Below, in pieces: positions 32,049 through 62,770 of a DNA stretch of 64,000 nucleotides. The notes below the pieces were generated by a model that did no database searches, had not been told where the DNA came from, and was given only the letters and a program-made list of their open reading frames with translations. Made by a program: the position numbers and the translations under genes. The DNA comes from Thermodesulfobacteriota bacterium (GTDB lineage Bacteria; Desulfobacterota; WTBG01; CAIYCZ01; CAIRTM01): assembly GCA_028278025.1 (NCBI GenBank), contig JANQFE010000045.1:658-64657 (forward strand). Reading direction: 5' to 3'. The first letter of the stretch is position 1. The number at the start of each line of letters is the position of its first letter.

Positions 32049-33197
32049 ATGTCACGAAGTGCGAAACATGAGACGTGTATTATGTTGATGCTTGCTGAAT
32101 CAATAAAAAATAGTTTTCTTATAGTCGTTCTTGCCTGTTTCACAATAGCACTGCCGGGCACTCCTGCCGGTAGCCTGTACGCCCATGAGCTCCAAAATAT
32201 AACTGTTCTAAATGCCGAGGGCTCGGAACAGACCGCGTTCACCCCTGGTGATACCATACAGTATCAGGCCATTTTCAGCTTTGAGGGGTTCAGAGGCAAA
32301 GCAGAGCTGCAGGGCACCATAACGGCAGAAAACTGGTCGGACACCCTGGCGAAAAAGGTATTTTATCCATGGCAGGATAACAACACAGCAAACTGGGTAG
32401 AAACCATACCGTCACATGCCGCCGGGCCGGCTTCTGTTGAAATTTCAGTAAGCGCTCCACTGCAGCAGGTGTCTGCACAATCAGCCTCTTTTACTGTCAT
32501 GCCGCTGGAAGCCGAGTATAGCGGCTCCCTAATCTGCAGTTCGTGTCATCAGGATTTGTATACCGGCTGGCAGGCTTCCGGCCACGCACCCCATGTCGGC
32601 TGTGAAATCTGTCATGGCCCCGGCGGTGATCATATAAAAGATTTATCCAAAGATTCTATTATTGTTGATATAAAATCTGAATTATACAGCCGCTGTCATT
32701 CCCGCAATGATGGAACCGACCTTGAAGCTCAAAACGGGTTTATCAAACCCTTGCAGCAATTTTACGAGGCAGAGAACTCTCCGCACCCACCGGCTGCTGA
32801 TTGCCTTACCTGCCACAACCCCCATTTCAGCCCATCGCAGGACAAGGGGCTGGCTATAAAAATTTCTTGCCGGGAGTGCCATGCCGACAAAACAGTCGGC
32901 CTTAACATGCAGCATCTTGATTGTGAGGACTGCCATATGCCTTTGGCCGTGCTCAAGGGAACATTCACCGGTCATGACATATATCGCAAGGCTGATGGCC
33001 GGTCACATATTTATCGGATTAAGGCAAAAGCAGGGCCTTATGATATGTTTTCCGCTGACGGCACTATGGTCATTGAAGATTCACACGGCCTCTTTCTATC
33101 CCTGAACTTTGCCTGCCTGACCTGCCACAATGGAACAGAGGAGTTCATGATGGATATGGAAGCAGCCCGTCAAACGCATACATTGGTTCATGAATAA
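32049..33197 (+). CDS. Multiheme cytochrome c with N-terminal beta-sandwich-like domain (6 CxxCH + 1 degenerate YSRCH)
   Basis: Signal peptide; CSSCH, CEICH, CLTCH, CRECH, CEDCH, CLTCH; paralog of 61643..62770. Confidence 0.85.
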   Translation: MSRSAKHETCIMLMLAESIKNSFLIVVLACFTIALPGTPAGSLYAHELQNITVLNAEGSEQTAFTPGDTIQYQAIFSFEGFRGKAELQGTITAENWSDTLAKKVFYPWQDNNTANWVETIPSHAAGPASVEISVSAPLQQVSAQSASFTVMPLEAEYSGSLICSSCHQDLYTGWQASGHAPHVGCEICHGPGGDHIKDLSKDSIIVDIKSELYSRCHSRNDGTDLEAQNGFIKPLQQFYEAENSPHPPAADCLTCHNPHFSPSQDKGLAIKISCRECHADKTVGLNMQHLDCEDCHMPLAVLKGTFTGHDIYRKADGRSHIYRIKAKAGPYDMFSADGTMVIEDSHGLFLSLNFACLTCHNGTEEFMMDMEAARQTHTLVHE

Positions 33198-33213
33198 AGG
33201 GAGTTACTAAACG

Positions 33214-34050
33214 GTGCAGGGCTTGATGCGTATATTAGCGGGGAAGTCACAGGTAGGACTGCTTATTGTTCTAAGCGCAGGTCTTCTGGGGGCGGCAGCC
33301 GGCTGCCGAATTCCTCCGGCCAGAGTCAATCCCGGCCAACTAAACGGCAGTATTGACTTACCCGGCAAAATTATTCACGCAACAGATAATGCAACCATGG
33401 TCCTGATACCCGGTGGAACGACTACAGTCGGTTCAGATCATGGTGATCCTGATGAGCAGCCTGCGCACGCAGTGTATCTCGAACCATTTTATATAGATAT
33501 CCATGAGACTACCAATAAACAGTACCGGGTGTTTTTAGAAGAAACCTCACACGCAAGGCCTAAGTTCTGGAGTCCCGACCTCGATCGGCCTGATGAGCCT
33601 GTTATCGGTATCAGTTGGTATGACGCGGTTGCATACGCACAGTGGGCCGGCAAGCGGCTGCCGACCGAAGCAGAATGGGAACACGCAGCCCGCGGGGGGA
33701 ACGGTGATGCTGTTTACCTCTGGGGCAAGGCAGACGCCCGCCGGTATGTTAACTATGACTCTTTTGGTTTGTTGTCTGTTATGCAGCTGCAGCCGAACGG
33801 GTATGGTGTGTATGATATGATCGGTAATGTCTGGGAATGGTGCGCCGACTGGTATGAAAATGAATACTACAGCATGAGTCCAAAAAAGAATCCCCAGGGA
33901 CCGTTCACAGGCACCCATAAGGTTCTGCGGGGCGGCGCCTGGTATTGTGATAAAAAACACCTTCGTACTGCTAATCGCTATTACGCTCTTCCTGATGCTC
34001 AAAGTTTCCATTACGGGTTCAGGTGCGTAAAAAGTGCACAAGCAGAATAA
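33214..34050 (+). CDS. FGE-sulfatase domain lipoprotein (module 1)
   Basis: Lipobox AAGC; RLPTEAEWE, GNVWEW and GFRC motifs; paralog of 56695..57504. Confidence 0.85.
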   Translation: MQGLMRILAGKSQVGLLIVLSAGLLGAAAGCRIPPARVNPGQLNGSIDLPGKIIHATDNATMVLIPGGTTTVGSDHGDPDEQPAHAVYLEPFYIDIHETTNKQYRVFLEETSHARPKFWSPDLDRPDEPVIGISWYDAVAYAQWAGKRLPTEAEWEHAARGGNGDAVYLWGKADARRYVNYDSFGLLSVMQLQPNGYGVYDMIGNVWEWCADWYENEYYSMSPKKNPQGPFTGTHKVLRGGAWYCDKKHLRTANRYYALPDAQSFHYGFRCVKSAQAE

Positions 34051-34089
34051 GTAAAATAAAAACCATGTAGAAAGAACAAAGGTCACCCT

Positions 34090-35196
34090 ATGCAGGTTGC
34101 AACACAAAAACAGCGTATGCATGCCAACCGATACAAAAAGAGTTTTCTGTTCATAGTAGCTCTGATGATTGCCGTGCTCTGTGTGTTTTCACACGTTCAG
34201 GCGGTTGATGAAGAAAATTGTCTGTTTTGCCATCAATACCGGGGGCTGAGCTATATTCATAAAAACGGCAGTTTCAGACTGCTCTACGTAACAGAAGACC
34301 TGTACCTGAACAGCCCGCACGGCAATTTGAAATGCAGCGACTGCCATACCGAAATAGACAAATTTCCTCATGGAGAGACAAAAAAGGTTGACTGTCTCAC
34401 CATATGTCATATCGATGAACCTTCATCAGGTCTGCCGTTCTCACACCAAAAGGTAGGAGATTTTTTAGCCCAAAGTGTACACAGCAAGACCGACCCGTCC
34501 GGCAATCTCAAACCCTATGCTGAAGATTATCCTGACTGTGTTACCTGCCATATGGATCCGCTGTATCGTCCGCTGGCATTCTTAAAAAAAGACATGCCCG
34601 GTCTTGAAGAAAAAACAATTCAGCGCTGCTCAATTTGTCATGAAGAAAGCGCCTTCATGCGCAAATTCTTCAACCACTTCACCTCCCGGATGCAGAAGTT
34701 GCGCAAACCGCGCGAAGTTGTGGAAATGTGTTCGAGCTGTCATGACAACATTGCAATGATGCAGCGACACAACCGCCCTAATGTCGTTAAGTCCTATATG
34801 GAAACATTTCACGGCAAGGCGGTCTATTTTGGTGATGAAAAATCAGCCGACTGCACGGACTGTCACGTCATGCCGGGTGAATCAATCCACGCGATCCACT
34901 CTATGGACGATCCTGCATCTGCATCCTATAAGGATAACATATACAAAACATGCTCCGACATTGACTGCCACCCTGATGCGCAGATGAATCTTGCCGGATA
35001 CAAAGCCCATGTTGTGGTTTCATCAAAACGCAATCCTGCCGAATTTGCATTCTGTGTTTTCTTTGTGGTTTTGACTCTGGGAAGCTTTATCCCTCTGATG
35101 ATTTTTACTGTTCTAGATATGGCCCGCAGCGTGTTTCCCAATTTTACATTGATTAAGAAAAAGGTAAAAAAAGAAAAAGGTAAAAAGGCACAATGA
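34090..35196 (+). CDS. Membrane-anchored multiheme cytochrome c (Cbc-like c subunit)
   Basis: 6 CxxCH plus CX3CH and CX4CH, C-terminal TM segment, overlaps the cytochrome b gene. Confidence 0.85.
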   Translation: MQVATQKQRMHANRYKKSFLFIVALMIAVLCVFSHVQAVDEENCLFCHQYRGLSYIHKNGSFRLLYVTEDLYLNSPHGNLKCSDCHTEIDKFPHGETKKVDCLTICHIDEPSSGLPFSHQKVGDFLAQSVHSKTDPSGNLKPYAEDYPDCVTCHMDPLYRPLAFLKKDMPGLEEKTIQRCSICHEESAFMRKFFNHFTSRMQKLRKPREVVEMCSSCHDNIAMMQRHNRPNVVKSYMETFHGKAVYFGDEKSADCTDCHVMPGESIHAIHSMDDPASASYKDNIYKTCSDIDCHPDAQMNLAGYKAHVVVSSKRNPAEFAFCVFFVVLTLGSFIPLMIFTVLDMARSVFPNFTLIKKKVKKEKGKKAQ

Positions 35197-36854
35197 AAAA
35201 AATCCGGATTGTTGTCAAGGATGGAGAGCTTTACTTTCAGCGGCTTACATTAAATCAGCGTATCCAGCATATTTTCCTGTTCGTTTCGTTTACCCTGCTG
35301 GCAGCTACCGGACTGCCGCTTAAGTTTCATCATACCTGGTGGGGCGAGGGGCTGTATACTCTTGTCGGCGGCATAACTATTGCACCGATTATACACCGCA
35401 TAAGCGCTGTTGTTATGACTCTGACCTTTTTGTATCATCTCTGTTATGTGATTGTATGTGCTTGGAAATATTACATACTACCCTTGAAAAAAGACCGGGA
35501 CCTGGATTTGAAAACCGTTCTGCAGGCCGTGCTCCAACTCCCTATGGTGCCTAACGCAACCGATCTAAAGGAGCTTAAAACAACTCTCAAGTATTTTCTG
35601 TTTCTTTCCAGCCAGCGTCCGTCACTTGTTGCACACGGCTTAAAAGAAAAATTCGGTTACCTGGCGGTCTTCTGGGGTATTCCGGTAATCGGGATCTCAG
35701 GGTACCTGCTGTGGGGTGAAACGTTCTTTACCGGCTATTTCAGCGGAAATGTTCTAAATTTTGCCTACATTGCTCACAGCGATGAAGCCCTGCTTGCAAG
35801 CATCGTTATTTTTATCTGGCATTTATATAACGTGCACTGGGCTCCGGCGGTCTTTCCCATGGGTAAAGCTTGGCTGGACGGGTTCATGAGTGAAAAAGAA
35901 ATGTCACTGTATCATTATGCGGACTACGTAAGGGCCATGGAAGATGCCGGGCTGCAGGACCAGATCAAAAGCAACTGCTTGCAGGAACAGTTTAAGGGCG
36001 GTTTCCTTAAACAGGTTTTCCAAAAAATATATATGGGCGTTATGATTGTGGCAATATGTTATGCCACAGTGGTAATTTGCCGTGTTATATACGAATCGGT
36101 GTTTGTTCTGGGATATCAAATTGTAACAACAGAACCGACTGCCGAGGTCAAACCGCTCGTTGAACCGCAATTTCTTGAGGAAATCATGCTGGAAGACGAT
36201 GAGCAAAAAACTTTTTACCGCGGGTACCGCTTTGTAAAAGAAAAAGAAATCAAAAATCATTATCACCGGATTGAGCTGGAGGTCGGCCCTGATACGATCT
36301 CCCACTGCATAACCTGTCATGGAGACCTGCCTCACGGCAATTCAGTCCACATCAGATCGTTTCTGAATATGCATAATCTATACTTTGCATGTCAAACATG
36401 TCATGTACGTCCCGGAGAGAGTGCTGAACGTTTATACTATTACTGGTACAAGCGTACAACCGGTGAGATTATTTCTAATCCGGACATCGGTAACCGGATG
36501 ATTGATACTCTTGATATTAAACTGACGCCCTGTGAGACATGCACAGCACCTCCTGAAAATTCTGATATCAAAAAAGAAAGAGCTGCGGTCAAAGACCTCA
36601 TGGACAGGATTCAGGCGGCAACAACAAGTGTGCAGGAGAAAAAGCAGATTGTCGCAACACTCCACCAGAATGTTGCAGAGCGCCCCCTTGCGTGCAGCGA
36701 ATGTCACAGCCGCAAAGAGCAGTTTTTACCCCTTCAGGAAATGGGTTTTTCTGAAGATCGGATTGCCCTGGTTGCGAGTGACCAGATAACGAAAATGATA
36801 CAGGAGTATAAGGAGTTCCATACTCCGGAGTTCCTCGAACCCGGTACACAATAA
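35193..36854 (+). CDS. Cytochrome b (FdnI/hydrogenase-b type) fused to a triheme c domain
   Basis: RIQH, IHR, EKFGYLAVFWG, AHSDEA..A...WHLY; C-terminal CITCH, CQTCH, CSECH. Confidence 0.85.
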   Translation: MKKIRIVVKDGELYFQRLTLNQRIQHIFLFVSFTLLAATGLPLKFHHTWWGEGLYTLVGGITIAPIIHRISAVVMTLTFLYHLCYVIVCAWKYYILPLKKDRDLDLKTVLQAVLQLPMVPNATDLKELKTTLKYFLFLSSQRPSLVAHGLKEKFGYLAVFWGIPVIGISGYLLWGETFFTGYFSGNVLNFAYIAHSDEALLASIVIFIWHLYNVHWAPAVFPMGKAWLDGFMSEKEMSLYHYADYVRAMEDAGLQDQIKSNCLQEQFKGGFLKQVFQKIYMGVMIVAICYATVVICRVIYESVFVLGYQIVTTEPTAEVKPLVEPQFLEEIMLEDDEQKTFYRGYRFVKEKEIKNHYHRIELEVGPDTISHCITCHGDLPHGNSVHIRSFLNMHNLYFACQTCHVRPGESAERLYYYWYKRTTGEIISNPDIGNRMIDTLDIKLTPCETCTAPPENSDIKKERAAVKDLMDRIQAATTSVQEKKQIVATLHQNVAERPLACSECHSRKEQFLPLQEMGFSEDRIALVASDQITKMIQEYKEFHTPEFLEPGTQ

Positions 36855-36864
36855 AAAGTAGTCC

Positions 36865-37812
36865 ATGATGAAAAAGTTACTTTGTCGCTATCTTTCTATA
36901 GGCCTGTTTTTATTGCTATGCGTTGATAACACACCGGCATATTGTCAAACAAGCGCACTCCCTATCATTAAATCACGTCATCTTTTTACTATTGACGCCG
37001 GCTTGCTGCATCCCAGTGATGTGGCCGTAGGCCCCCAGGGCAGGATATATGTTGTTGACGGTGTTCATCATCAAATTAAAATCTATAATCGGGACGGTAC
37101 CTTTATCTCTTCCTTCGGCTCCCAGGGTTCAGCCGGTGGCTCGTTCCATTACCCGTTAGGCTTGGATGTCAGCAGAGAAGGAAGCGTGTATGTAGCTGAT
37201 GCGGGCAATCATCGTGTTCAGATTTTTGATGCTTCCGGTCTGTTCCTGCAGCAGTTTTCCCTCCCGCCCCCCAAGAATGCAAAAATGTCTGATCCCAGCG
37301 ATGTTGCTGTTGATGACACTACCGGACGCTGCTATGTTGTTGACAATGATAATCATAGAATCCTGGTCTATACCAAGGATGGTTCCCGTCTTATAAAAAT
37401 ATGGGGTGAAAGCGGCGAGAAACTGGGGCAATTTCAGTATCCGTTCCTGGTATCTATGGACAGGCATGCACACCTTTATGTCGTGGATGTGCTTAATACG
37501 CGCGTACAGGCGTTTAATCCCGAAGGTCGTGTTATGGCCTATATCGGCAAATGGGGTGTTGACAGAGGACAGTTTTACCGGCCCAAAGGGGTTACCGTTG
37601 ACCACAAAGACCGCATCTTTATCAGCGACAGCTATCTGGGGGTCATACAGATTTTTAAACGGTTTCGTAAATTTATCGGCATCCTCGGTGATCAGGCCGG
37701 TGAAATGCTGCGGTTTAAAACCCCTACGGGCATATATATCGATACTACGCTGAGGCTCTATGTTGTAGAAATGGCCCAAAACCGGGTCTCAGTCTATCAA
37801 ATTCTGGAATAG
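36865..37812 (+). CDS. NHL-repeat beta-propeller protein
   Basis: Repeated P.DVAV...IYV.D..N.R.Q.F units; signal peptide. Confidence 0.9.
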   Translation: MMKKLLCRYLSIGLFLLLCVDNTPAYCQTSALPIIKSRHLFTIDAGLLHPSDVAVGPQGRIYVVDGVHHQIKIYNRDGTFISSFGSQGSAGGSFHYPLGLDVSREGSVYVADAGNHRVQIFDASGLFLQQFSLPPPKNAKMSDPSDVAVDDTTGRCYVVDNDNHRILVYTKDGSRLIKIWGESGEKLGQFQYPFLVSMDRHAHLYVVDVLNTRVQAFNPEGRVMAYIGKWGVDRGQFYRPKGVTVDHKDRIFISDSYLGVIQIFKRFRKFIGILGDQAGEMLRFKTPTGIYIDTTLRLYVVEMAQNRVSVYQILE

Positions 37813-37845
37813 TTTGTGAATCAAGCAGTTTGTGAAGCGATTACT

Positions 37846-39891
37846 ATGCAGAAATATGTTATTAAAACAATACTATCTATTTGGTATGCCGCCGCGATGC
37901 TGGCCGGCTCCTCGGCAGCTGCCCAGATGTTTCATGCCGATAAGCCTGACACGGCCAAACGATGTGCTGTTTGCCACTACCAATGGGTATATCCCTTTTA
38001 TGCTGAGCAGCGTGACGGAGAGTTGGCACCGCGCCCACAGGCGAAGGCTGTTGCAAGCCCTGAGATGTGCCTGTCATGTCACGATGGCTCTGTTGCAGAT
38101 TCACGCAAACGGGTTTTTCACAGTCCCGGACATCATACCGGCATTGTGCCGTCGGACAAGGTTTCCATTCCTGAAGAATTTCCTCTTGACGAATCAGGGC
38201 AGATACAATGTGCCACGTGCCATTCCCCGCATGCCCTTCCCAGCGAGACTGATACCGGCTTTGGCCTTTTCTTACGGGCAGAAAACAAAAACTCTCAGTT
38301 CTGCAAGACCTGTCACACGAATAATGAGGGCGGCCCCGCGCAGGGTAATCATGCAATTGACATAAGTGCTACTGCAAAAACTTCGGATATCATTAAGAAC
38401 GGCGGTCGCTTCGGTACGGACCGCGAAAAACAAATTATCTGCGAAACCTGTCACAGTGCTCACGGCGGCTTATCTGAAAAACTGTTAATACTTCCTGTTG
38501 CTGAAAACTCCCGGAGGTCTGCCCTGTGTGAAGCATGTCATTCACAAAATCCGGGCACGGCAAACGGTCAACCCGATCCCGGCGGCAGCCACCCGGTAGG
38601 CACCCTGCCGCAAAAAACAAAAATTCCCTCTCAGTGGTCCAGCGGGGCAAAAATCGTTCTGAACCCTTCCGGTGCCCTACTGTGCAGGACCTGCCACACC
38701 CCTCACGGCGCAGCAGGGCAAAAAGCACTGCTTGTCGACCACAATCATCAGGACTCCCTCTGCATGCAGTGCCATAAAAGTCAAAAAACAATTGTAGGTT
38801 CCAGCCATGATATGAAAATTACGGCGCCGGATGAAAAAAATATCCGTGGACACCGCGCTGCTGAAACAGGCCCATGCAGTTCATGTCATCTTGCACATAA
38901 AAGCAACACCCTCTTGCTATGGGCACGACAACTTCATCCGACATCTCAGAGCACCGTCCTGGAGGAGTTGTGTATCAGCTGTCATGCGCCGGGGCAATGC
39001 GGGGGAAAAGCACTACCGGGTGAGGCATCTCACCCTGTTAATGTACTATTTGAGCCCGACACCCCCCTGCCGTCGTTACCTTTATTTGATACAGATAACA
39101 GGCCAGCACCGCAAGGCACCCTAAGCTGCCTGACCTGTCACCGGGCACATGATCCCGCCCCGCTGTATATGCACGACCCGACCGCACCCGTTAAGCGGGG
39201 GGCATTTCTTAGACTAGCCCGGGCAGGAGTAACAAACCTGTGCATCAGCTGTCATAAACAGCAAGCGTCGATTATCGGCACCGACCATGATTTAACCCTT
39301 TCCGCCCCTGATTTCATCAATGTGTTCGGGCAGAAAGTCGAACAGAAAAATATATGCAGTTCCTGTCACGTTGCTCATAATGCATCACTGGAGAAATACT
39401 TATGGGCCGGGCCGCTGGGCAAAGTCTCCGCTAAAGAAGAGGAAGGCGAGCCAAAAGCTGAAGCAAACAGTATGGAAAGGACGTGCACCGGATGCCATTC
39501 CGGGGGCAATGCTGCGGCAGCTCAGATTCCACGATACGGACAACACCCCCCAGGGGTACAAATCCAGGAGGACTTGTTGAAAGTCGCCCTGGATTCCTCT
39601 GATACCCCGCTCCCGGTTTTTAATGACCAAAACGAAGCACCATCACATACAGGACCTATTATCGTATGCTCAACATGTCACAATCCGCACCAGTGGGACC
39701 CTAAAAAAAACATGCCGGGACCGGGTATCCCAATAGAAGGTGATGCAACCAACAGTTTTTTGCGGCCGGGACTGCCTGTTATGTTTTGTGCAGGCTGCCA
39801 TGGGCAAGAGGCCCTCTTCAAATTCAAATACTTTCACAGTCATATCGGCCGCAAACAAAACAACAATTCTTTCTCTTTTAAAAAGCACTGA
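37846..39891 (+). CDS. 16-heme cytochrome c (doubled-CxxCH type)
   Basis: 16 CxxCH by manual count, SHP motifs, signal peptide from ATG 37846. Confidence 0.9.
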   Translation: MQKYVIKTILSIWYAAAMLAGSSAAAQMFHADKPDTAKRCAVCHYQWVYPFYAEQRDGELAPRPQAKAVASPEMCLSCHDGSVADSRKRVFHSPGHHTGIVPSDKVSIPEEFPLDESGQIQCATCHSPHALPSETDTGFGLFLRAENKNSQFCKTCHTNNEGGPAQGNHAIDISATAKTSDIIKNGGRFGTDREKQIICETCHSAHGGLSEKLLILPVAENSRRSALCEACHSQNPGTANGQPDPGGSHPVGTLPQKTKIPSQWSSGAKIVLNPSGALLCRTCHTPHGAAGQKALLVDHNHQDSLCMQCHKSQKTIVGSSHDMKITAPDEKNIRGHRAAETGPCSSCHLAHKSNTLLLWARQLHPTSQSTVLEELCISCHAPGQCGGKALPGEASHPVNVLFEPDTPLPSLPLFDTDNRPAPQGTLSCLTCHRAHDPAPLYMHDPTAPVKRGAFLRLARAGVTNLCISCHKQQASIIGTDHDLTLSAPDFINVFGQKVEQKNICSSCHVAHNASLEKYLWAGPLGKVSAKEEEGEPKAEANSMERTCTGCHSGGNAAAAQIPRYGQHPPGVQIQEDLLKVALDSSDTPLPVFNDQNEAPSHTGPIIVCSTCHNPHQWDPKKNMPGPGIPIEGDATNSFLRPGLPVMFCAGCHGQEALFKFKYFHSHIGRKQNNNSFSFKKH

Positions 39892-41417
39892 TGTTAAACC
39901 GCAATAATATACATTATTATCTTTATCTAAATCTACTTGGCCTCCTGATAGGCCTCGGCAATGCTGTAGCTGAAACTGAGGAGCCCGTAAACCCTCACTG
40001 GACTGATAAGCACTGCACGGAATGTCATGTCAAAGCAGAAAAGCCGGATTTACTCTTTGAAGGCGACAGTGTACAAATGTGCAATCGCTGCCATGCCGAA
40101 TCTTTTGCCCGCACAGATATTCATCCGGTTGGGGTAAAACCGACTGCAGATATGCAAAAAATCATGCCGGACACCTGGCCGCTGGAAAACGGAGCAATTA
40201 CTTGTATTACCTGCCACGACGTCCTGGTTCAGATGAAAGAAAATGCTGCTCAAAGACTGCTGAATCCCTCGTTCCTGCGGGGTGCCCCGTATGAACAGAT
40301 ATCGTCCTTTTGCTTCTCGTGTCATCAGCAGAATCAGTTTGCAAAAACCAACCCCCACGAGCAGCTGGACGCACAGGGTACCATCATTGCAGGACGCTGC
40401 CTTTTCTGTCACCAGTCGCTGCCGAATCCACAGCAGGCTCAAAGCATCAATGACGTTACGTTTAATAATGGCCGGACTGACATGTGTGTCAATTGTCACA
40501 GCGATAAACAAACTGCCCATCCCGCGCGCGCAGACCATCTGGTGGAACTGTCTGCAGACCGGCTCACGTCTTTGCAGTTTGAGGGCGGCAAGCAAGGCAT
40601 CGAACTGCCGATCTTTCGCGGAAGCGTTGTGTGCGGCACCTGCCACAACCCGCACCAAAAAGGTGTCATGCACCGGCAGGAGATTGGTCACGGCGCCGGC
40701 ACAGAAAATTTTCTTCGTCTTAACGGTGGATATGCATTGTGTGTTTTCTGTCATACGGACATGCGTATAACTGCAAAGCGATCTTTCAGCCGACCGAGTC
40801 GTAATGCGCTGAAAACTGCTCCCGAGGTTATGAGGAATCACAAACCCTGGGCAGAAAACAAATGCAAAATGTGCCACACCATCACACCTAAAAACCGAAC
40901 AAAACCTGCTGCGGTGTTGCTGTGCTTCAAGCAGGGCTGCCATCAAACCGACATGCTTGAAAAAGAATTCGTGCATGCAAAAAGTGTCGGCGAAAACTGC
41001 TATTTTTGCCATGAGTCGCACAACGCCGGCTACAAGAAATTGCTGCGGATAAATGAAAAGCGCCTGTGCTACACCTGCCATCCGTTGATACAAAACGAAA
41101 ACATGAGTGAGTCTGTACAACCGGCGTCAAAATGGCATGATGAGTACTTAGCCTATATACAGACTACCGACATACCGCAGGAGCGGGCCTGTGAATTTTG
41201 CCACAGCAGCAGTCACCAAAAAGAAATAAGCACCATCAAAACCGGCTCGTGTGCTGATTGTCATATTTATGTACGGCAACGCTTAGCTGAAGCGGCTATA
41301 CAGCCGATAAACAGTCACCAGCAGTTTGAAAAACAATCATGCTCTGCATGTCATGACCCGCATGCAGCAGCATATCCGTTTCAACTAAAAAATCCTGTGG
41401 AGACCTATACGCAATGA
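39891..41417 (+). CDS. ~15-heme cytochrome c
   Basis: 14 CxxCH plus CFKQGCH; signal peptide. Confidence 0.9.
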   Translation: MLNRNNIHYYLYLNLLGLLIGLGNAVAETEEPVNPHWTDKHCTECHVKAEKPDLLFEGDSVQMCNRCHAESFARTDIHPVGVKPTADMQKIMPDTWPLENGAITCITCHDVLVQMKENAAQRLLNPSFLRGAPYEQISSFCFSCHQQNQFAKTNPHEQLDAQGTIIAGRCLFCHQSLPNPQQAQSINDVTFNNGRTDMCVNCHSDKQTAHPARADHLVELSADRLTSLQFEGGKQGIELPIFRGSVVCGTCHNPHQKGVMHRQEIGHGAGTENFLRLNGGYALCVFCHTDMRITAKRSFSRPSRNALKTAPEVMRNHKPWAENKCKMCHTITPKNRTKPAAVLLCFKQGCHQTDMLEKEFVHAKSVGENCYFCHESHNAGYKKLLRINEKRLCYTCHPLIQNENMSESVQPASKWHDEYLAYIQTTDIPQERACEFCHSSSHQKEISTIKTGSCADCHIYVRQRLAEAAIQPINSHQQFEKQSCSACHDPHAAAYPFQLKNPVETYTQ

Positions 41418-52101: not shown

Positions 52102-52230
52102 AAATTCTCCCTTGCATATGATAGAAATAATATTTCTAGGTCCAATGTGTATAAACCCTGCATTCTATTTAAATGATGCTGGTTGCTTGCTCCTTGATAC
52201 CGGATAAGAAAACAACTATCATCCAGCATT

Positions 52231-52419
52231 TAGTACAGCGTCACATGTGAATTTGTCTGTTCATCGGTGAGGGTCTTTGGTTTTTGGGCCGCCAGGGCGC
52301 TGCGAGCACTTGCCTATACTATAAGAGACGGTCATTCAAGCGAGCACATAGCCCGCTGCATTCAAAATCAAAGACCCTCGCTAAATCATACCCACACATT
52401 CAAATGTGGTGCTGTACTA
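52231..52419. mobile_element. MITE-like element, copy 1 (~190 bp)
   Basis: TIRs TAGTACAGCGTCACA...TGTGGTGCTGTACTA; near-full-length homolog at 61458..61645. Confidence 0.75.
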
Positions 52420-56688: not shown

Positions 56689-56694
56689 GCTTTG

Positions 56695-57504
56695 CTACTT
56701 TATATCTTTAACCGTGATCACGCACCGAAAGCCGATATTAAAGCTGCCCAGCGCAGGATCATTCTTATGCCGGTTTGCTATACGCAGTGCCACCTCATTT
56801 GAATACCAGGCACCGCCTTTTACAACTTTGCGCATGCCCTGCAAAGGGCCTTGAGGATTTCTACCGGAGCTTACACTATAGTAGTCACTGTCATACCAGT
56901 CCTGGCACCATTCCCACACATTCCCGGCCATGTCATACAGGCCAAAACCGTTGGGCGCATAACTCTTAACCGGCATGGTCCCGAATGAATTGTAGTTGGC
57001 CTGCTGCTGATGTATCCCCTCACCCCATGGATATAGTTTCTCTGCCAGGCCGCCACCGGCGGCCTTTTCCCACTCCGCCTCGGTAGGTAGCCTCTTGCCG
57101 GCCCACCGGGCAAAAGCTTCGGCATCATACCAGCTTACGCCGACTACGGGTTCCTCCGGGCGGTCATATTTCGGATCCCATAAGGGATGGGGAGGATAAC
57201 CGGTTGCTTCTAAAAAATGTGCATAGCGGGCGCAGGTAACCTCGGTTTCATCTATATAAAATGCATCAAGGTACACACTGTGCTGCGGTTGTTCATCATC
57301 ATCCCCGGCGCTGCTGCCCATCACAAAAGAGCCGGCCGGCACCAGGACCATAGTAACGGAATCCGTGTTGCTGACAAGTGTTTTAGGATAGGGCTGCCCG
57401 CTATCAATAGTATCATGAGGGGCGGGAACAAATGAGCGGCATCCCCATAAAAAACATACTATAAAAGAGAGCACCCCAACAATGCGATATCGCTTCCTAA
57501 ACAT
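56695..57504 (-). CDS. FGE-sulfatase domain lipoprotein (module 2)
   Basis: Lipobox LWGC; RLPTEAEWEKAA, PNGFGLYDMAGNVWEW and GFRC motifs. Confidence 0.87.
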   Translation of the reverse strand: MFRKRYRIVGVLSFIVCFLWGCRSFVPAPHDTIDSGQPYPKTLVSNTDSVTMVLVPAGSFVMGSSAGDDDEQPQHSVYLDAFYIDETEVTCARYAHFLEATGYPPHPLWDPKYDRPEEPVVGVSWYDAEAFARWAGKRLPTEAEWEKAAGGGLAEKLYPWGEGIHQQQANYNSFGTMPVKSYAPNGFGLYDMAGNVWEWCQDWYDSDYYSVSSGRNPQGPLQGMRKVVKGGAWYSNEVALRIANRHKNDPALGSFNIGFRCVITVKDIK

Positions 57505-57753: not shown

Positions 57754-58680
57754 ATGGCTTTTACCAAAAAAATTTTGCTAAAAATCCTCTCACCCGGCAT
57801 TCTTGTGCTCATCATTGCCGCTGCATGTGTTCGCTATACAGACCAGATTAAACTTGCAATTCCATTTCCCGATGCAACCTATGTTGGTTCTGAAGAATGC
57901 GCCGTATGCCACGAGGACGTGTTTGAATACTTTAAAAAAACAGTCCATTTTAAACTGCGTGACTTTGAAGTGCCCGGGCAGATGCGGGGGTGCGAATCCT
58001 GTCACGGCCCGGGCAGCGCGCATGTTGCCGAGCGGGGCAAGGTTGATCAAATACTTAGCTTTAGCAAACTGACTCCGGAGCAGGGTTCGGCAATCTGCCT
58101 GCAATGTCACCGGCAGGAACCGCTCATGGACTGGAACAACAATCTACATGCCACCAGTGCAGTAGGGTGTAACGACTGTCACAAATCCCATAAAATTACT
58201 GCAAAAAAGATGGTTTACAAAGGTGACCCGGAGCTGTGCTATGACTGTCACCAGCAGATGCGGGCACAGGCTGAATTTCCATCCCATCATCCTATCCGCG
58301 AAGGTAAGATGACATGTACAGACTGTCATAATACTCATGGTGCCGACCCCGGTGCTTTAAAGGTAGGCACCGTGAATGATCTCTGCTATGAGTGTCATAC
58401 TGATAAGCAGGGACCTTTTATCTATGAACATCCGCCGGTTGAGGAAGGCTGCTCACTGTGCCATGACCCTCACGGCACTATTGCCAACAACCTGTTAAAA
58501 CAAAATGAGCCGTTTCTTTGTTTGCGCTGTCACCGGGGACACCGGGGTAATCCGGTTCCGCGCGGTGGGCTAAGGCATCCGAGCATGCCGACCCTGCTGA
58601 CATCCTGTTCTCAGTGTCATTCACAGGTCCATGGCAGCGATCTGCCTTCCCAGATGGGTGAAGGCAATTTGACAAGATAA
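57754..58680 (+). CDS. Decaheme cytochrome c lipoprotein, DmsE/MtrA-like (module 2)
   Basis: 10 CxxCH; lipobox AAAC; paralog of 41414..42352. Confidence 0.9.
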   Translation: MAFTKKILLKILSPGILVLIIAAACVRYTDQIKLAIPFPDATYVGSEECAVCHEDVFEYFKKTVHFKLRDFEVPGQMRGCESCHGPGSAHVAERGKVDQILSFSKLTPEQGSAICLQCHRQEPLMDWNNNLHATSAVGCNDCHKSHKITAKKMVYKGDPELCYDCHQQMRAQAEFPSHHPIREGKMTCTDCHNTHGADPGALKVGTVNDLCYECHTDKQGPFIYEHPPVEEGCSLCHDPHGTIANNLLKQNEPFLCLRCHRGHRGNPVPRGGLRHPSMPTLLTSCSQCHSQVHGSDLPSQMGEGNLTR

Positions 58681-58812: not shown

Positions 58813-60672
58813 ATGGCTATACCATGCCGATGCGTTCTTAGCTTTTTCCTTGCGGTTGTAATCGTTGCTTGCATCTGTGCCGGCACTTCCGCCTGGGCTG
58901 AGGAAGCGCAAAAGAAAGATTCCGCAAAAGCCGTTGAGTATTCTTTTGATGCCAGCATCGGGTATCATCATGCCAATGTAAACAGTTATCGCGGAAAAGT
59001 GGGCGAATATGAAGTGCTGGATCCGGGCATGGAGGCCGCATTCAGTTTTGAAGCCTATACGCGCAGCAAATACCTTGATATTATCGGTGACATTAAAGAC
59101 AAACATGACCAGCGGTACCTGCTCGGCTTTGATAGTGACCGGATTTTTCAAACCGAAACATCTTACAATCGTTTCAGGCACTACCTTGACCATGATCCTT
59201 TAAAAAATCAGGACTTTTATACCGATTTTGATGCAGGCAAAACTAACTCCATTACCTGGGAAGAGGTAAAAAGCAAAAACACTTTTCGTGTTCCTTTTGT
59301 TCCGGGCCTGAAACTTACGGCAGATTACCGGCAGGTGAACAAGCGCGGCCACCGACAGGCTACTACTGTCAGCAAGTGCACCCAGTGTCACGTTAGCTCT
59401 CGAAACAGGCGCATTAACCAGACCATTAAGGATATTAAAGTGGGCGCTGAAATGGCGGTTGGCCCGCTTACGCTCAACTACAGTCACCTCCAGAGAAACT
59501 ATAATGAGGGCGGCAGTGCGCCCATTGCGTATTACAGTAATGCCGCAACCTCCTTCCCCGTTAAAGGGTATAACCGCTACAATTCAGTGTCAGATTCACG
59601 CACCTATGTGAACCAAATTAAAGCTCGGGTGGACCTCCCCCTTCAGTCTACTTTTTATTTTGATTATGAGACCGGTAAAAACCACAACCGGGAAACCCGC
59701 AATGAACGGGAGTTCCAAAGCTATGCGGTTCGCTTGGCAACTGCCTGCTTAAAATATGTTTCTTTCAACTTTAATTATTATGATTATGACATGGAAAATG
59801 ATGTTCCGAATGCTATGGAACGGGATGTTACCAGAAGCGGTTTTTCATTCAGGACAATTTCCTGGAAAAAAACGTTTTTACGGGGCAGCTACCGCGTGGA
59901 GGATATAGAACGGCGCAACAGCGCCGAGGAATCGACCCTGAAACAGATTTTTACGCTGGCACTGTTTAGCAGGCCGCACCGTAAGCTGAATTTTAACATA
60001 CAGTACCGTAATGAACAGATTGATGATCCCTTTATTTCTGAACAGTGGGAATTGATCAGGTTCACGCAAACCAGTCTGCCTACCAGAAGAGATGAGCTGC
60101 AGCTTGCGCTGAACTGGACACCCCGCGGCAACCTGTCCTTTTCCTCTACCATCCGCTATGGAGATTCTGAAAGCAGCCGCTATGTAATAGATGAAGAAAG
60201 GCTGGAAATGATATTCAGCATGTGGTATGCACCCAATGACAGGCTCATGCTCACAGCTTCCTATAGCCTTATTGATACGGATATCGATACCCGCGCAATC
60301 TATAAAACCTATCACCGCAGCGGGAGCCTTTCGGATTATCTATTTGACCGCAGTGTTCCCTATGATGACTCAAGCCACTGCTACAACCTGACGATTAACT
60401 ATCGCCTCAGCAAAAGGGTGGCCTTGACAGGCAGTGCTACCTATGTAGACTCCAGTGCTGATTATGACTCTTATATTAATACAAAAAATATCGGTAAATT
60501 CTCCGACCTTAACATTGAACGCCTTGATACGGCCCTCGGACTGGATTACCTCTACAAGCCCAACCTCTCTTTCTACACACGCTATAATTATCGGGACTAT
60601 GATGACCGGGAAGTGAGTGACCTTGATGGGGAAGCCCACATTATTAGTTTTGGTGTAAACTATTCATTTTGA
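58813..60672 (+). CDS. Outer-membrane beta-barrel with CxxCH (module 2)
   Basis: KCTQCHV motif, C-terminal YSF; paralog of 42363..44204. Confidence 0.85.
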   Translation: MAIPCRCVLSFFLAVVIVACICAGTSAWAEEAQKKDSAKAVEYSFDASIGYHHANVNSYRGKVGEYEVLDPGMEAAFSFEAYTRSKYLDIIGDIKDKHDQRYLLGFDSDRIFQTETSYNRFRHYLDHDPLKNQDFYTDFDAGKTNSITWEEVKSKNTFRVPFVPGLKLTADYRQVNKRGHRQATTVSKCTQCHVSSRNRRINQTIKDIKVGAEMAVGPLTLNYSHLQRNYNEGGSAPIAYYSNAATSFPVKGYNRYNSVSDSRTYVNQIKARVDLPLQSTFYFDYETGKNHNRETRNEREFQSYAVRLATACLKYVSFNFNYYDYDMENDVPNAMERDVTRSGFSFRTISWKKTFLRGSYRVEDIERRNSAEESTLKQIFTLALFSRPHRKLNFNIQYRNEQIDDPFISEQWELIRFTQTSLPTRRDELQLALNWTPRGNLSFSSTIRYGDSESSRYVIDEERLEMIFSMWYAPNDRLMLTASYSLIDTDIDTRAIYKTYHRSGSLSDYLFDRSVPYDDSSHCYNLTINYRLSKRVALTGSATYVDSSADYDSYINTKNIGKFSDLNIERLDTALGLDYLYKPNLSFYTRYNYRDYDDREVSDLDGEAHIISFGVNYSF

Positions 60673-60728
60673 TCCTGCATTCTTTCCATCTACTCTGATA
60701 AATATGCTATAACTATAGTAAAGTACCT

Positions 60729-61340
60729 ATGGAGGCATCCGGCATGAAAAAATTTGTGTATATTAGTTGTGTCTGTCTGCTGATATGTATACCCTGCCGG
60801 AATGCTGCGGCTGTCCGGGTAAACCTTACCAGTGAGTCTGTAACGGAGGCCGTAGATACCGGAACAAAGCATGGGTCAAAAATTACCGCTTACCTTAAGC
60901 AACAATATAGTTTCGGCAATGAGGATATGTTTGAAGAATATGGAATTATAAGGAGCAAGTGGTCAAAACTTGCAATGCTGGCCGGCTTGTTAGCCGCCAG
61001 GGACAAACAACCCTCGGAACGGGAAATAAATCACATTACCGGTGACACCCATCTGCAAATAGATGTCGTTACTTATGGCAATACAATTGATTTTGCCGAA
61101 AAATGTAAGGTTCACCTGGTGCAGAACGGCACCATCATAGAGCCGGAAAAAACCTCTGCAACGCATTCCTCTCATATACCCGGTAAAAAAACAGCAGCCT
61201 CAGGTTTTCCGAAATATCGTGCCACCGTAGGATCATATTTTGCCTACGGCACGTTCTGCCCTGACTGCAAAGTTGAAATTGTTTTGACCAAAGATGGTAA
61301 AACAGTTACCTTTGCAGTCAATCTTGCTGATTATAAATAA
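60729..61340 (+). CDS. Exported hypothetical protein (paralog of 44275..44859)
   Basis: Same position after the porin gene; shared motifs. Confidence 0.8.
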   Translation: MEASGMKKFVYISCVCLLICIPCRNAAAVRVNLTSESVTEAVDTGTKHGSKITAYLKQQYSFGNEDMFEEYGIIRSKWSKLAMLAGLLAARDKQPSEREINHITGDTHLQIDVVTYGNTIDFAEKCKVHLVQNGTIIEPEKTSATHSSHIPGKKTAASGFPKYRATVGSYFAYGTFCPDCKVEIVLTKDGKTVTFAVNLADYK

Positions 61341-61366
61341 GCAAGAGTACTCCAGCGCAGGTTAAT

Positions 61367-61405
61367 AATAAAAAAACCACCCCGATATCGGGGTGGTTTT
61401 TTATT
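61367..61405. terminator. Bidirectional rho-independent terminator
   Basis: AAAAAACCACCCCGAT/ATCGGGGTGGTTTTTT palindrome between convergent genes. Confidence 0.8.
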
Positions 61406-61457
61406 TTACATGTTCAGTTTGAGCTATATGGCAGATGGGGGTTTTCCGACAGCCTCC

Positions 61458-61645
61458 AGTACAGCGTCACACTTTAATTTGTCAGTTGATCGATGAAGGT
61501 CTTTGGTTTTGGGCAGCAAGGGCGGTGTGAGCAATTGCCTATACTATAAGACACAGTCGTTCCAGCGAGCACAGAGCCCGCTGCAATCAACACCAAAGAC
61601 CCTCGCTAAATCTTTACCCCCAAATTCAAAAGTGACTCTGTACTA
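61458..61645. mobile_element. MITE-like element, copy 2
   Basis: AGTACAGCGTCAC...GTGACTCTGTACTA; homologous to 52231..52419; its end supplies the TAG stop of 61643..62770. Confidence 0.75.
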
Positions 61646-62770
61646 GTCCGCATGTATCAATGTTGCCGCCTGCACTGCCCAGTCAAAATCATGCGCCCTG
61701 CCGAAACTGCCGTCATGGCATCCCAGACAGGTAAAATTCAGGGTGAGAAAACCATTGGTATAGGTTTTACCATCCTCCTGGAAAAACATTGCAGCAGGTT
61801 CTGCAGCCGTATCCACACTGTAGAGATGTGCACGTGTGTCGCCTTTCAGGTTATCTCCTGCACCGGTTGATGTCTGTTTCTTCACGGCCAACGGCATATG
61901 ACAATCAATACAGTCAACTCCTGCTGCGATATGAAACTGATTTATCGTCTCAGTGTGGCATGTAGTGCAATCAATAATAATGGCGTCCTGAGGATTGTTT
62001 TGCACACTGACGTGGGGATTGTGGCAGCGTACACACTTAAAGGCTGCTTTACCGCCGGTAAGCAGCTCATCAAACTGCTGGTTGTGTTTTATCAGGCCGT
62101 CCTCTGCCTCCACCCTGTTCTGGCTGTCCCCCCTGGTATGACAACGCCCGCACAACTCGGCAGACGTATCGACAATGATGTTATCCTTTGAAGGAGAGCC
62201 AACATGGTTACTGCCGGGGCCATGACAGTTTTCACAATCTATAAATACATGCAGGGAGTCCTGCAGGTCCTCCGCGATATCTGCATGGCACAGCTTGCAA
62301 GTCTCTGAACCCACCGCGACCGGCGGCTCATCAGGGGTAGCCTCCGTAATACTGAAGGTGGCTTCACGAGTTGAAATTGCATCTATGATACCGACAAAGG
62401 ATATCCGTGCTGTTGCCGTACCGCTTGCATTAGCAGGAATGCTCACATCCCAGGTGGTGGTATATGATCCGGCAGGCAGAAAGGCGTACTCTGCCGGAAG
62501 CGTTTCCTGAAAATTGGTTGCGCTGATTTCTCCCCATAAAAAAACAGCCGTCATGCGACCGTCCACGCTAAAATCAACTTTAACCCGCATATCATCACCA
62601 GGTTCAAAAACTGTTGTGGCAGTGCCGCCCGGATCAGTAGTGAGTACTTCATCAACACTCATTGTCTCAGCACAGAAACCCGTTTGAACGGAGATCATAA
62701 CCGGCACCAAACACACAGCTAGAACAACAGCCGGAAAAGCATAGCGTCTAAAAAAAATAGTAAGCATCAT
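61643..62770 (-). CDS. Heptaheme cytochrome c with N-terminal beta-sandwich-like domain (module 2)
   Basis: 7 CxxCH; signal peptide; paralog of 32049..33197. Confidence 0.88.
   Translation of the reverse strand: MMLTIFFRRYAFPAVVLAVCLVPVMISVQTGFCAETMSVDEVLTTDPGGTATTVFEPGDDMRVKVDFSVDGRMTAVFLWGEISATNFQETLPAEYAFLPAGSYTTTWDVSIPANASGTATARISFVGIIDAISTREATFSITEATPDEPPVAVGSETCKLCHADIAEDLQDSLHVFIDCENCHGPGSNHVGSPSKDNIIVDTSAELCGRCHTRGDSQNRVEAEDGLIKHNQQFDELLTGGKAAFKCVRCHNPHVSVQNNPQDAIIIDCTTCHTETINQFHIAAGVDCIDCHMPLAVKKQTSTGAGDNLKGDTRAHLYSVDTAAEPAAMFFQEDGKTYTNGFLTLNFTCLGCHDGSFGRAHDFDWAVQAATLIHAD

Follow-up and report, generated by a model that had tools for sequence, protein, structure and literature searches.

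To our knowledge, outer-membrane electron conduits are structurally understood only for MtrCAB. Proteins with the fold of formylglycine-generating enzyme (FGE) and NHL proteins turn up repeatedly in genomes of electroactive organisms, with no explanation so far. Both kinds of protein are encoded, together with decahaem cytochromes and barrels resembling OmcK and OmcL of Geobacter, in two cytochrome-rich gene sets, here called modules A and B, that form an island in a 64,000-nucleotide stretch of DNA from an uncultured Thermodesulfobacteriota bacterium of sediment type. By "the window" we mean this whole stretch, which is contig C129 of a 4.8-Mb metagenome bin that is 93.5% complete.

The pieces of the island belong to known kinds, namely OmcK/OmcL (MtrAB-like), CbcBA-like units and NHL accessories. 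GSU2203 is identified as OmcK in tables of PMC4070692 and PMC13194489. GSU2203 and GSU2204 are up-regulated with iron oxides, and the barrel bears the old Geobacter annotation "cytochrome c family protein, putative" (PMC4070692). OmcK/OmcL is described as a porin-cytochrome conduit in HotSeep-1 and Seep-SRB2, and its expression in HotSeep-1 is four-fold above that of OetABI (PMC10553843). We found no biochemical study of OmcK/OmcL in the open literature. At the inner membrane, CbcBA of Geobacter has a c subunit with a C-terminal anchor and is under sigma54 control (bioRxiv 10.1101/2021.04.15.440034). NHL proteins beside multihaem cytochromes have been noted earlier (bioRxiv 10.1101/2022.05.06.490989; PMC5815863). 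Finally, MccSep/ExtKL of Geobacter is a selenocysteine (Sec) multihaem cytochrome and polysulfide reductase that is encoded near the rhodanese-like ExtH (PMC13510729).

In our judgement, the island is fairly likely to encode, in two intact copies that diverged long ago, a modular multihaem pathway that would carry electrons between the menaquinone pool and the cell surface. As far as its sequence tells, the gene set probably wires the inner-membrane quinone pool to the cell surface via about 120 haem groups. A previous sequence-only reading had proposed a self-contained extracellular electron transfer island; the parts do fit a quinone-to-outer-membrane route, but they are not one obligate unit, as the relatives described below make clear.

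The window contains no N, and the open reading frame (ORF) coordinates of the sequence-only reading all stand (Table 1). Module A consists of ten co-directional genes (32049-44859, plus strand) separated by gaps of -4 to 70 bp, which fits the single operon suggested previously. Module B (48332-62770) is arranged as B8-B7-B6-B4-B3-B2-B1 on the minus strand, B9-B10-B11 on the plus strand, and B12 with the small gene d1 upstream of it on the minus strand; these are at least three transcription units, the number proposed, with a strong two-way terminator between B11 and B12. In a BLASTP comparison among the window's proteins, every module A gene finds a module B partner at 29-59% identity and near full length (E-values from 1e-26 to 0; individual pairs in Table 1), in agreement with the gene-by-gene pairing made before. 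The sole structural difference between the modules is that A4 is a fusion whose halves match the separate genes B3 and B2, so that the supposed pair of a cytochrome b plus a trihaem protein exists in both modules, fused in the one and split in the other. Decay of one copy had been raised as a possibility; at the gene level, all genes of both modules are intact reading frames.

A recount of canonical CxxCH haem-binding motifs gave the 127 that had been estimated: 56 in module A, 61 in module B, and 10 in the Sec-containing cytochrome between them (the Sec-cytochrome), whose count takes in the stretch upstream of its TGA. Two of the haem numbers assigned to pairs need qualification. In the "heptaheme" pair, B12 has seven CxxCH and A1 has six canonical ones, and each member of the "15-heme" pair reaches 15 motifs as 14 CxxCH and one CxxxxCH. 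Matches to Pfam and NCBIfam confirm the FGE-sulfatase, NHL, cytochrome b561, MtrB/PioB-like porin and rhodanese assignments, as well as CcsA, ResB and the PAS-sigma54 activator that had been placed just upstream of module A. An ORF at 52267-53064 (plus strand), which overlaps B6 and has no family match, is probably spurious.

At the outer membrane, A8 and B9 contain ten CxxCH each, pass the cut-off of the GSU2203-family decahaem model (NF041028), and also lie above the cut-off of the DmsE/MtrA subfamily. A9 exceeds the cut-off of 23 bits for PF11854 (MtrB/PioB). Two points tell against the corresponding assignment of the barrels: both A9 and B10 fall below the curated cut-off of 350 bits for the GSU2204 family (NF041027), over which a genome-wide search of the window's genome gave no match, and B10 has no match to the MtrB_PioB Pfam family at an E-value of 0.01 or better. 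A structural model, covering only A9 of the two barrels, was made with AlphaFold2 from 28 aligned pores and has a mean predicted local distance difference test score (pLDDT) of 78.9. It contains 26 long strands, and a Foldseek search of the PDB gave a single strong match, MtrB (6r2q_B; E 1.7e-19, template modelling (TM) scores 0.76/0.72), with the next match at a TM-score of about 0.4. Because the A9 model strongly matches MtrB alone, and in view of the family matches, we regard A8 with A9 and B9 with B10 as MtrAB-like pairs. The decahaem gene is directly upstream of the barrel gene in both modules and in 8/8 distant loci.

With MtrCAB of Shewanella (PDB 6R2Q), these pairs share the 26-strand barrel and a decahaem that belongs to the NCBIfam subfamily of MtrA/DmsE. 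However, they lack an adjacent MtrC-type decahaem, the window decahaem has a lipoprotein-like signal, and the window barrel has a haem-binding motif of its own, on a long loop whose predicted orientation is outward. The likeness to OmcK/OmcL (GSU2203/GSU2204) lies in the succession of a DmsE/MtrA-like decahaem and a CxxCH-carrying barrel; the differences are that the window barrels score just under the GSU2204-family cut-off and that the window pair sits within a set of 10-11 genes comprising Cbc-like, NHL, FGE-fold, large cytochrome and small-protein genes. As described in the accessible text of PMC10553843, omcKL of HotSeep-1 has no periplasmic cytochrome alongside, unlike the window. Decahaem and CxxCH-barrel pairs also occur outside the phylum, in a Nitrospirae record (L006) and a Zixibacteriota record (L008), the latter with Cbc-like genes 5-9 kb upstream of the pair.

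The haem motif of the barrel lies in a stretch, KRGHRQATTV-x-KC-x-QCHVSSRN, that A9 and B10 share. A CxxCH is found at this place in 37 of 39 pore ORF rows (3 of the rows are duplicates), which represent this class, other families of the phylum, and one Nitrospirae and one Zixibacteria record. Among the 28 aligned pores, G174, Q177, C184, C187 and H188 are invariant (28/28). In the A9 model, residues 178-192, which include the motif, make up a loop of low confidence that joins strands 7 and 8. Connections from even to odd strands are all 2-5 residues in length, and each of the long loops comes after an odd strand; if A9 has the topology that is usual for outer-membrane barrels, the loop with the CxxCH would lie on the outer side or be folded into the lumen. 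The motif has been noticed before, since both the NCBI family name and the old Geobacter annotation carry it. In the literature within reach of our search, which excluded supplements and subscription papers, no study of the function of the barrel CxxCH turned up.

We tentatively propose, while giving the idea rather low credence, that the OmcL-type barrel is itself a cytochrome. A covalent haem on the loop between strands 7 and 8, situated in the lumen or the outer mouth of the MtrB-like pore, would then be the last relay after the decahaem, and the two proteins would form a conduit that is independent of MtrC. According to the same proposal, the FGE-fold lipoprotein, the NHL protein and the small immunoglobulin (Ig)-like protein would be a non-haem scaffold for an unbroken wire of haems leading from a Cbc-type quinol oxidase to the cell surface, and the copies would differ in the potentials or partners to which they are tuned.

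The small protein in question, A10 or B11, belongs to no Pfam or NCBIfam family. In the loci compared and in the window's whole genome, a profile of 19 members matches solely directly after pores of this class, and BLAST detects an A10/B11-type protein adjoining the pore at 22 of the 27 pore loci of the class. (This survey took in pores of at least 400 residues and decahaems of at least 230 residues and 150 bits.) Three of the five loci without it are cut by contig ends, one of these having a partial profile match; the fourth, in genome G408, lacks it despite available sequence, and the fifth is that of a distant pore. Among 1.84 billion representative proteins, 210 match at an E-value of 0.001 or better, 30 of them at 1e-30 or better. 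The A10 model has no PDB match at an E-value of 0.001 or better with Foldseek; its C-terminal half weakly resembles immunoglobulin constant domains (TM-scores of about 0.3/0.47). A predicted complex of A9 (residues 27-613) with A10 (residues 22-194) scored 0.28 and 0.15, relative to a mark of 0.32, in a run without controls.

On the inner-membrane side, the c-type subunits A3, B4 and C3 (the last from a further module, C, in the same genome) have six CxxCH, one or two variant motifs and a hydrophobic C-terminal helix, with hydropathy peaks at residues 321-339, 350-380 and 320-338, respectively. The cytochromes b exceed the PF01292 cut-off of 30.1 bits (A4 with 33.2 bits), and the NHL repeats of A5 and B1 exceed their Pfam cut-off of 20. 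No NCBIfam model matched the Cbc-like subunits. These units resemble CbcBA (GSU0593-0594) in combining a PF01292 cytochrome b with a multihaem c subunit that has a C-terminal anchor, and module A resembles the CbcBA/BccR system in the sigma54 activator beside it. They differ from CbcBA in an added anchored trihaem domain, fused or separate, and in the NHL propeller after the complex, and the activator differs from BccR in having a PAS domain and not a receiver domain. The likeness to CbcBA is one of domains and architecture.

The order of c subunit, cytochrome b, trihaem and NHL genes is not confined to the class: of 23 cytochrome-b loci viewed through flanks of only 1.5 kb, 3 have it, those of G383, G063 and G022. 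Because the same order recurs in other families, the NHL protein belongs with the inner-membrane unit. The Uet cluster of Candidatus Tenderia and DFE_448-465 of Desulfovibrio ferrophilus likewise have NHL beta-propellers among multihaem cytochromes, and the Uet cluster also has cytochrome-maturation genes nearby. However, these clusters contain other cytochromes and another pore, and the accessible descriptions of them mention neither an FGE-fold lipoprotein nor a Cbc-type unit. The long cytochromes of the modules may have enough haems to cross the periplasm, by analogy with the argument made for PCC3. In a family denoted f54 (G358, G334, G227, G197, G284, G136, G310 and G103), three to four B3-like cytochrome b genes stand in tandem about 2 kb apart, and several of them are fused to domains with 9-11 haems.

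The FGE-sulfatase fold is found, with lipoboxes, in A2, B8 and a third paralogue, u3, which is 35% identical to B8 and 32% to A2. The best PDB sequence matches of A2 are bacterial FGEs (E 2.6e-44), and A2 also matches PorK, a structural lipoprotein of the type IX secretion ring (E 1.6e-18). The active-site cysteine pair of FGEs was placed by alignment to 6s07. The C-x4-C stretch is cut in A2: a gap of three residues takes away the second cysteine but leaves the first. An alignment of 18 FGE-like proteins was considered, one of which is truncated before the cysteine stretch; in the short stretch after the GGAW motif, the second cysteine is present in 0/17 module FGE-like proteins, and it is also absent from u3. 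Most A2-type proteins, and two others, retain the first cysteine; the window's B8 and most B8-type proteins lack it. Because the pair is missing, A2/B8-type proteins are not formylglycine-generating enzymes, and a binding or scaffold role would be the simplest reading. The structural, non-catalytic role guessed by the sequence-only reading is thus favoured. PorK/GldK offers a parallel as an FGE-fold lipoprotein that is structural and not catalytic; however, the window protein reaches 122 bits relative to the GldK cut-off of 350, has about half the length, and lacks a secretion-system context. Our literature search, within whose reach tables S5-S7 of PMC10553843 did not fall, found no paper on FGE-fold or small accessory proteins with OmcKL.

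If the parts work in series, electrons would pass from menaquinol to the Cbc-like inner-membrane unit (c subunit, cytochrome b and anchored trihaem, with the NHL protein alongside), from there to the periplasmic cytochromes of 16-20 and 15 haem motifs, and on to the OmcK decahaem threaded inside the OmcL barrel. They would leave OmcK for the barrel's own haem or the heptahaem cytochrome and so reach the outside, with the non-haem proteins acting as scaffolds or assembly aids. It is also conceivable, but we think unlikely, that the pathway runs inward, from a mineral, a cathode or a syntrophic partner to the quinone pool, and that the two copies serve different donors. Such a direction would agree with the high expression of OmcKL homologues in the sulfate-reducing partners of methane-oxidising archaea, where flow is inward and CbcBA has been proposed to run in reverse (PMC10553843), and with the NHL-plus-cytochrome clusters of electron-uptake organisms (bioRxiv 10.1101/2022.05.06.490989; PMC5815863). 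However, CbcBA and GSU2203/2204 of Geobacter are linked to outward flow (bioRxiv 10.1101/2021.04.15.440034; PMC4070692), we identified no terminal reductase for inward electrons, and direction is not readable from sequence. A further point against inward flow is that no dsrA turned up in the genome, which is 93.5% complete (best score 22.7 bits, cut-off 392.85). Because dsrA was not found, and because the genome has 393 CxxCH in 46 ORFs with at least three motifs, the organism would seem to be an extracellular-electron-transfer specialist rather than a standard sulfate reducer.

We compared the island with 42 species genomes of its class and with a sample of 401 genomes of the phylum. In the class, an A4-like gene occurs in 27/42 genomes and a pore in 25/42; in the phylum sample, a pore homologue occurs in 44/401 and a B3-like cytochrome b in 150/401. 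It had been considered that the gene set might not be conserved elsewhere, but both module types are kept gene for gene in class genomes. The order A1-A10 is the same in G108, in G202 and, across a contig break, in G141. The run B8-B7-B6-B4-B3-B2-B1 occurs in G108, G202, G141, G408 and G422, and also in G424, where B6 and B8 were found by tblastn only.

The arrangements differ among three families, denoted f1, f2 and f4. In family f1, G108 carries on one strand the sigma54 activator, A1-A10, the Sec-cytochrome, the rhodanese gene and B8-B7-B6-B4-B3-B2-B1, with a single pore. G202 has the Sec-cytochrome, the rhodanese, a tetrahaem gene and A1-A10 on one strand with B8-B1 divergent, and G141 has sets of the G202 type spread over three contigs. 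G408 (f1) has B8-B1 followed by A3, A4, A8 and A9, while G172 (f1) combines A1, A2 and D-type inner genes with A7, A8 and A9. G035 and G261, of family f2, have A8-A9-A10 alone. In family f4, the window's divergent B8|B9 layout is found in G424 (with B1-B4 and a split B7 in the ORF map) and, on a short contig, in G339; in G422, B11-B10-B9 diverges from a longer inner run that ends in B8-B7-B6-B4-B3-B2-B1, and in G420 from B4-B1 only. The genes resB-ccsA directly follow B1 in G424, G422 and G420.

The sequence-only reading had taken the set for a 10-component machine, and this did not hold up: the B inner part stands without an adjacent pore in G108, G202 and G141, the pore set stands alone in G035 and G261, and G408 and G172 have hybrids. 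The window's own genome has additional inner modules, C and D, on contig C51, with 152 more CxxCH, and two pores genome-wide. Module C consists of an FGE, a c subunit, a cytochrome b plus trihaem, an NHL and a 16-haem cytochrome gene, and blastp gives 72% identity to A3 (76% over a shorter stretch) and 65% to A4. Module D consists of an NHL gene, a fusion 889 residues long that unites all three Cbc parts, and two cytochromes with 16 and 22 haems. Because relatives hold the inner part, the pore set or hybrids alone, and because the window's genome has extra inner modules, we conclude that the gene set is conserved as separable sub-modules, not as one obligate 10-part unit.

The C51 island (about 49500-78600; L103, L104) has all its 152 CxxCH on one strand. 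Upstream of modules C and D are genes for a 5-haem lipoprotein, NHL proteins, 11-, 7- and 13-haem cytochromes, and a 671-residue protein without a family that is a possible pore; downstream are a ChaN-like haem-binding protein and a periplasmic binding protein. The E-C arrangement of C51 recurs in G407.

With respect to known clusters, part of the organisation matches OmcK/OmcL (GSU2203/2204) and CbcBA-like complexes, which have names but little or no characterisation. Within the open literature, we regard as new the wider conserved set with its FGE-fold pseudo-enzyme and class-specific small protein, the invariance of the barrel haem motif, the mix-and-match evolution of the sub-modules, and the retention of both conduit types by one genome. 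The locus and its relatives thereby define a conserved wider gene set around OmcK/OmcL, with a barrel haem motif that is invariant across several phyla-level groups. Genomes with the inner part only, the pore only or both copies amount to natural "experiments" that show the dependencies among parts, and for the FGE-fold and NHL proteins of cytochrome-rich envelopes the set suggests a role that is non-catalytic and can be tested.

The distribution of pores bears on the history of the two copies. Among the 42 genomes, only the window's combines an A-type with a B-type pore; G404 carries a pair of pores that are both A-like. B-type pores are otherwise confined to f4 genomes (7/11), and A-type pores are found in f1 and f2 only. 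In the pore tree, clade B unites seven f4 rows, one duplicate record and B10 at a support of 100/100, and the f4 rows without B10 group together at 99/97. Clade A (96/99) brings together 13 f1 rows, 3 f2 rows and, among them, A9; the f2 rows form a single group. The decahaem and small-protein trees also place the window's B copy with f4 (98 and 99; small proteins of at least 240 residues were left out of the latter). In the NHL tree, the clade of B1 (99) contains five f1 and three f4 rows, the clade of D5, the module D NHL protein, (99) contains f1, f2 and f4 rows, and the A5/C5 group is without resolution. Because the NHL clades mix families, several paralogue lines predate the split of f1 and f4, and because both module types recur in related class genomes, the A/B split predates at least two families. 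The gene trees thus indicate that the two copies are not a recent in-genome duplication. The question of duplication or separate acquisition had been raised for such trees to decide; they exclude recent duplication, and retention and transfer both fit.

The inner genes of module B have a different affinity from its pore. In a concatenation of seven proteins (2842 columns; G261 and G407, with fewer than 900 filled columns, were left out), B1-B8 of the window group with the f1 genomes G202 and G141 at a support of 99, and the same grouping is obtained for B1-B4 (98) and B6-B8 (60). By identity, B6-B8 are closest to the f4 genome G422 and B3-B4 to f1 genomes. Since the inner genes of module B are f1-like, the B8|B9 layout is common with f4, and B10 is sister to the f4 rows, we lean, moderately, toward an old duplication after which one pore type was lost in most lineages and both were kept in the window's genome.

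We also considered that B9-B12 and d1 are a xenologue, i.e., an f4-type outer-membrane set that was gained laterally next to the genome's own B inner module, with the A and B types being family orthologues. We consider this somewhat unlikely. It would require one gain, as opposed to the several losses that retention implies, and it is in keeping with the confinement of B-type pores to f4 and the window's genome and of A-type pores to f1/f2, with a pore tree that mirrors the families, with the intergenic repeats in module B (Table 1), and with the inter-clade transfers of OmcKL conduits proposed in PMC10553843. However, in the longer pore and small-protein trees the window copy is sister to all f4 rows and not nested among them (99/97; 91). 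Moreover, the divergent B8|B9 layout and d1 are as in f4, yet B1-B8 are f1-like, so that a transfer must have rebuilt the ancestral layout exactly. There is also no breakpoint signal, as B6-B8 still fall, weakly, on the f1 side (60 and 73). A mosaic module B with a breakpoint at the B6|B4 repeat was dropped as unsupported, since separate trees put both halves with f1 (98; 60, 73).

Several points weigh against our reading of the island. The decahaem tree places B9 inside the f4 rows, at weak nodes of 46 and 87, which fits lateral transfer better than retention, and the f1 genome G408 falls with f4 genomes in the concatenated tree (support 83-84). The pore tree is the careful one; all others are quick trees with Shimodaira-Hasegawa-like approximate likelihood ratio test (SH-aLRT) support only, and in the two concatenated trees that contain B6-B8, letter make-up differs among rows. 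All compared genomes are metagenome bins, and gene starts are taken to be the first in-frame start codons. A search for public sequencing runs listed three DNA runs of one study and no RNA run. As regards the assembly itself, contigs assembled independently from a public DNA run span 44-64 kb in full at an even depth of about 50; that run may be the source sample, in which case the comparison tests how the DNA was assembled rather than its biology. One of them, of 4508 bases, bridges B8, B9, B10 and B11 with no differing letters and at the depth of its neighbours, and the public contigs break only at high-depth intergenic repeats.

These repeats are an observation in their own right. The B6|B4 gap holds one copy of a direct repeat of about 165 nt whose second copy, where word depth in the public contigs is high, follows B11; more spots are around 48037-48262 and 44970-45190. 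At several intergenic spots around the modules, the depth in the public contigs is 3-16 times the local value and the contigs break, which suggests a multi-copy intergenic element. The B7|B6 gap (54007-54090) is filled with 14-nt tandem repeats that are CTCATTACTCATTG-like, and a related stretch in inverted orientation occurs in the B2|B1 gap (49323-49360).

The Sec-cytochrome between the modules is, on sequence grounds, a real selenoprotein gene. Its TGA and the surrounding GEGUGG motif are kept in G108 and G202 (3/3 homologues read), and selB is present in the window's genome; selenocysteine is supported because the TGA is conserved and selB is present. A hairpin 7 nt after the TGA, considered as a SECIS element, has an ordinary energy (z -0.36). 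The protein has no NCBIfam match, including to MccSep/ExtKL (NF040886), and no PDB sequence match below an E-value of 0.3. Contig C22 of the window's genome (G000) carries, at 19490-20656 (minus strand), another copy of this family that is 63% identical to the one in the window.

The presence of this gene raises the possibility, in our view quite improbable, that the island mainly respires sulfur or another chalcogen: the Cbc units and long cytochromes would feed the Sec-cytochrome and the rhodanese, and OmcK/OmcL would be side branches. In the window, G108 and G202, both genes are found between the modules or next to them, and in G108 they form with module A and B8-B1 the co-directional, single-pore array described above. 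The Sec-cytochrome is on a contig with module genes in five of the seven class genomes that have it. As in ExtHIJKL/MccSep, the polysulfide reductase system of Geobacter, a rhodanese lipoprotein stands beside a Sec multihaem cytochrome near an outer-membrane conduit. However, there is no detectable sequence relation to MccSep, and the window protein has 10-11 haem motifs as opposed to 5, carries its Sec in the GEGUGG motif near the N terminus, and is a lipoprotein. The Sec-cytochrome is also present in 7/42 class genomes only, in contrast to 25-27 for the modules, and f4 genomes such as G424 have module B without it. We retain the quinone-to-surface pathway as our main reading of the island.

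Table 1. Positions of the island's genes and of neighbouring features in the window. Identities are from BLASTP between module partners.
Feature	Position	Strand	Evidence or detail
ccsA, System II cytochrome c maturation	25730..26575	-	PF01578, 188 bits
resB/ccsB	26707..28107	-	PF05140, 324.8 bits
u3, third FGE-fold paralogue	28232..29161	+	PF03781, 157.7 bits
PAS-domain sigma54 activator	30535..31899	+	PF00158, 237.8 bits, plus PAS and HTH_8
Possible weak -24/-12 sigma54 promoter	32013..32028	+	TGGCACAATTCTTGTC, 2 mismatches to consensus
A1, multihaem cytochrome, pair of B12	32049..33197	+	6 CxxCH
A2, FGE-fold lipoprotein, not catalytic FGE	33214..34050	+	PF03781, 217.5 bits; lipobox AAAGC
A3, Cbc c-type subunit, C-terminal membrane helix	34090..35196	+	6 CxxCH + CxxxCH + CxxxxCH
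A4, cytochrome b fused to membrane-anchored trihaem c domain	35193..36854	+	PF01292
A5, exported NHL beta-propeller	36865..37812	+	PF01436, 104.6 bits
A6, 16-haem periplasmic cytochrome	37816..39891	+	motif count
A7, cytochrome	39891..41417	+	14 CxxCH + 1 CxxxxCH
A8, OmcK-type decahaem, lipoprotein-like signal	41414..42352	+	NF041028, 340.1 bits; TIGR03508, 257.3 (cut-off 192.2)
A9, OmcL-type 26-strand barrel, CxxCH at 184-188	42363..44204	+	NF041027, 310.3 bits; PF11854, 36.8 bits
A10, small exported protein, helical N-terminal half and Ig-like beta-sandwich	44275..44859	+	model pLDDT 92.8
Selenocysteine multihaem lipoprotein (Sec-cytochrome), TGA at codon 71	45305..46699	+	10 CxxCH + 1 CxxxCH
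Double-rhodanese lipoprotein	46901..47905	+	PF00581, 79.4 bits, two stretches
B1, NHL propeller	48332..49297	-	103.7 bits; 43% to A5
B2, membrane-anchored trihaem c	49420..50199	-	29% to C-terminal half of A4
B3, cytochrome b	50219..50923	-	PF01292, 39 bits; 29% to N-terminal half of A4
B4, Cbc c-type subunit, C-terminal helix	50923..52101	-	39% to A3
Intergenic direct repeat	52224..52387; second copy 61450-61612		83-86% identical
B6, cytochrome	52438..54021	-	14 CxxCH + 1 CxxxxCH; 35% to A7
B7, 20-haem cytochrome	54097..56688	-	motif count; 38% to A6
B8, FGE-fold lipoprotein, both FGE cysteines absent	56695..57504	-	PF03781, 225.5 bits; 49% to A2
B9, OmcK-type decahaem	57754..58680	+	NF041028, 361.3 bits (cut-off 325); 59% to A8
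B10, OmcL-type barrel, CxxCH at 189-193	58813..60672	+	NF041027, 313.5 bits; 47% to A9
B11, small exported protein	60729..61340	+	36% to A10; profile match 2.5e-82
Two-way intrinsic terminator between B11 and B12	61371..61402		14-pair stem, T runs on both strands
B12, heptahaem cytochrome, pair of A1	61643..62770	-	PF22113, 35.9 bits; 36% to A1
d1, small exported protein accompanying module B in f4 genomes	62844..63257	-	

As to regulation, sigma54-like promoter matches in the window are at chance level (41 found, 40.6 expected). A homologue of the PAS-sigma54 activator, 67% identical, lies upstream of A1 in G108. Homologues of d1 that are 44-46% identical adjoin B11 or B12 in G424, G339 and G422. 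The window's d1 has no haem motif, while the homologues in G339 (247 residues) and G422 (164 residues) have four and two CxxCH, respectively; the window's gene may be a shortened copy.

Elsewhere in the window, a type I CRISPR-Cas locus (Cas3-like helicase, Csc2, Cas6b, Cas1, Cas4) occupies positions 12977-24714 and is followed at 24868-25412 by a CRISPR array of eight repeats that match Rfam CRISPR-DR7. The G+C content is 32-36% in positions 1-8000 and 45-50% in the remainder. Just past the island, at 63518-63640 (plus strand), is a molybdenum/tungsten cofactor riboswitch (Rfam RF01055, 59.2 bits, gathering threshold 36).

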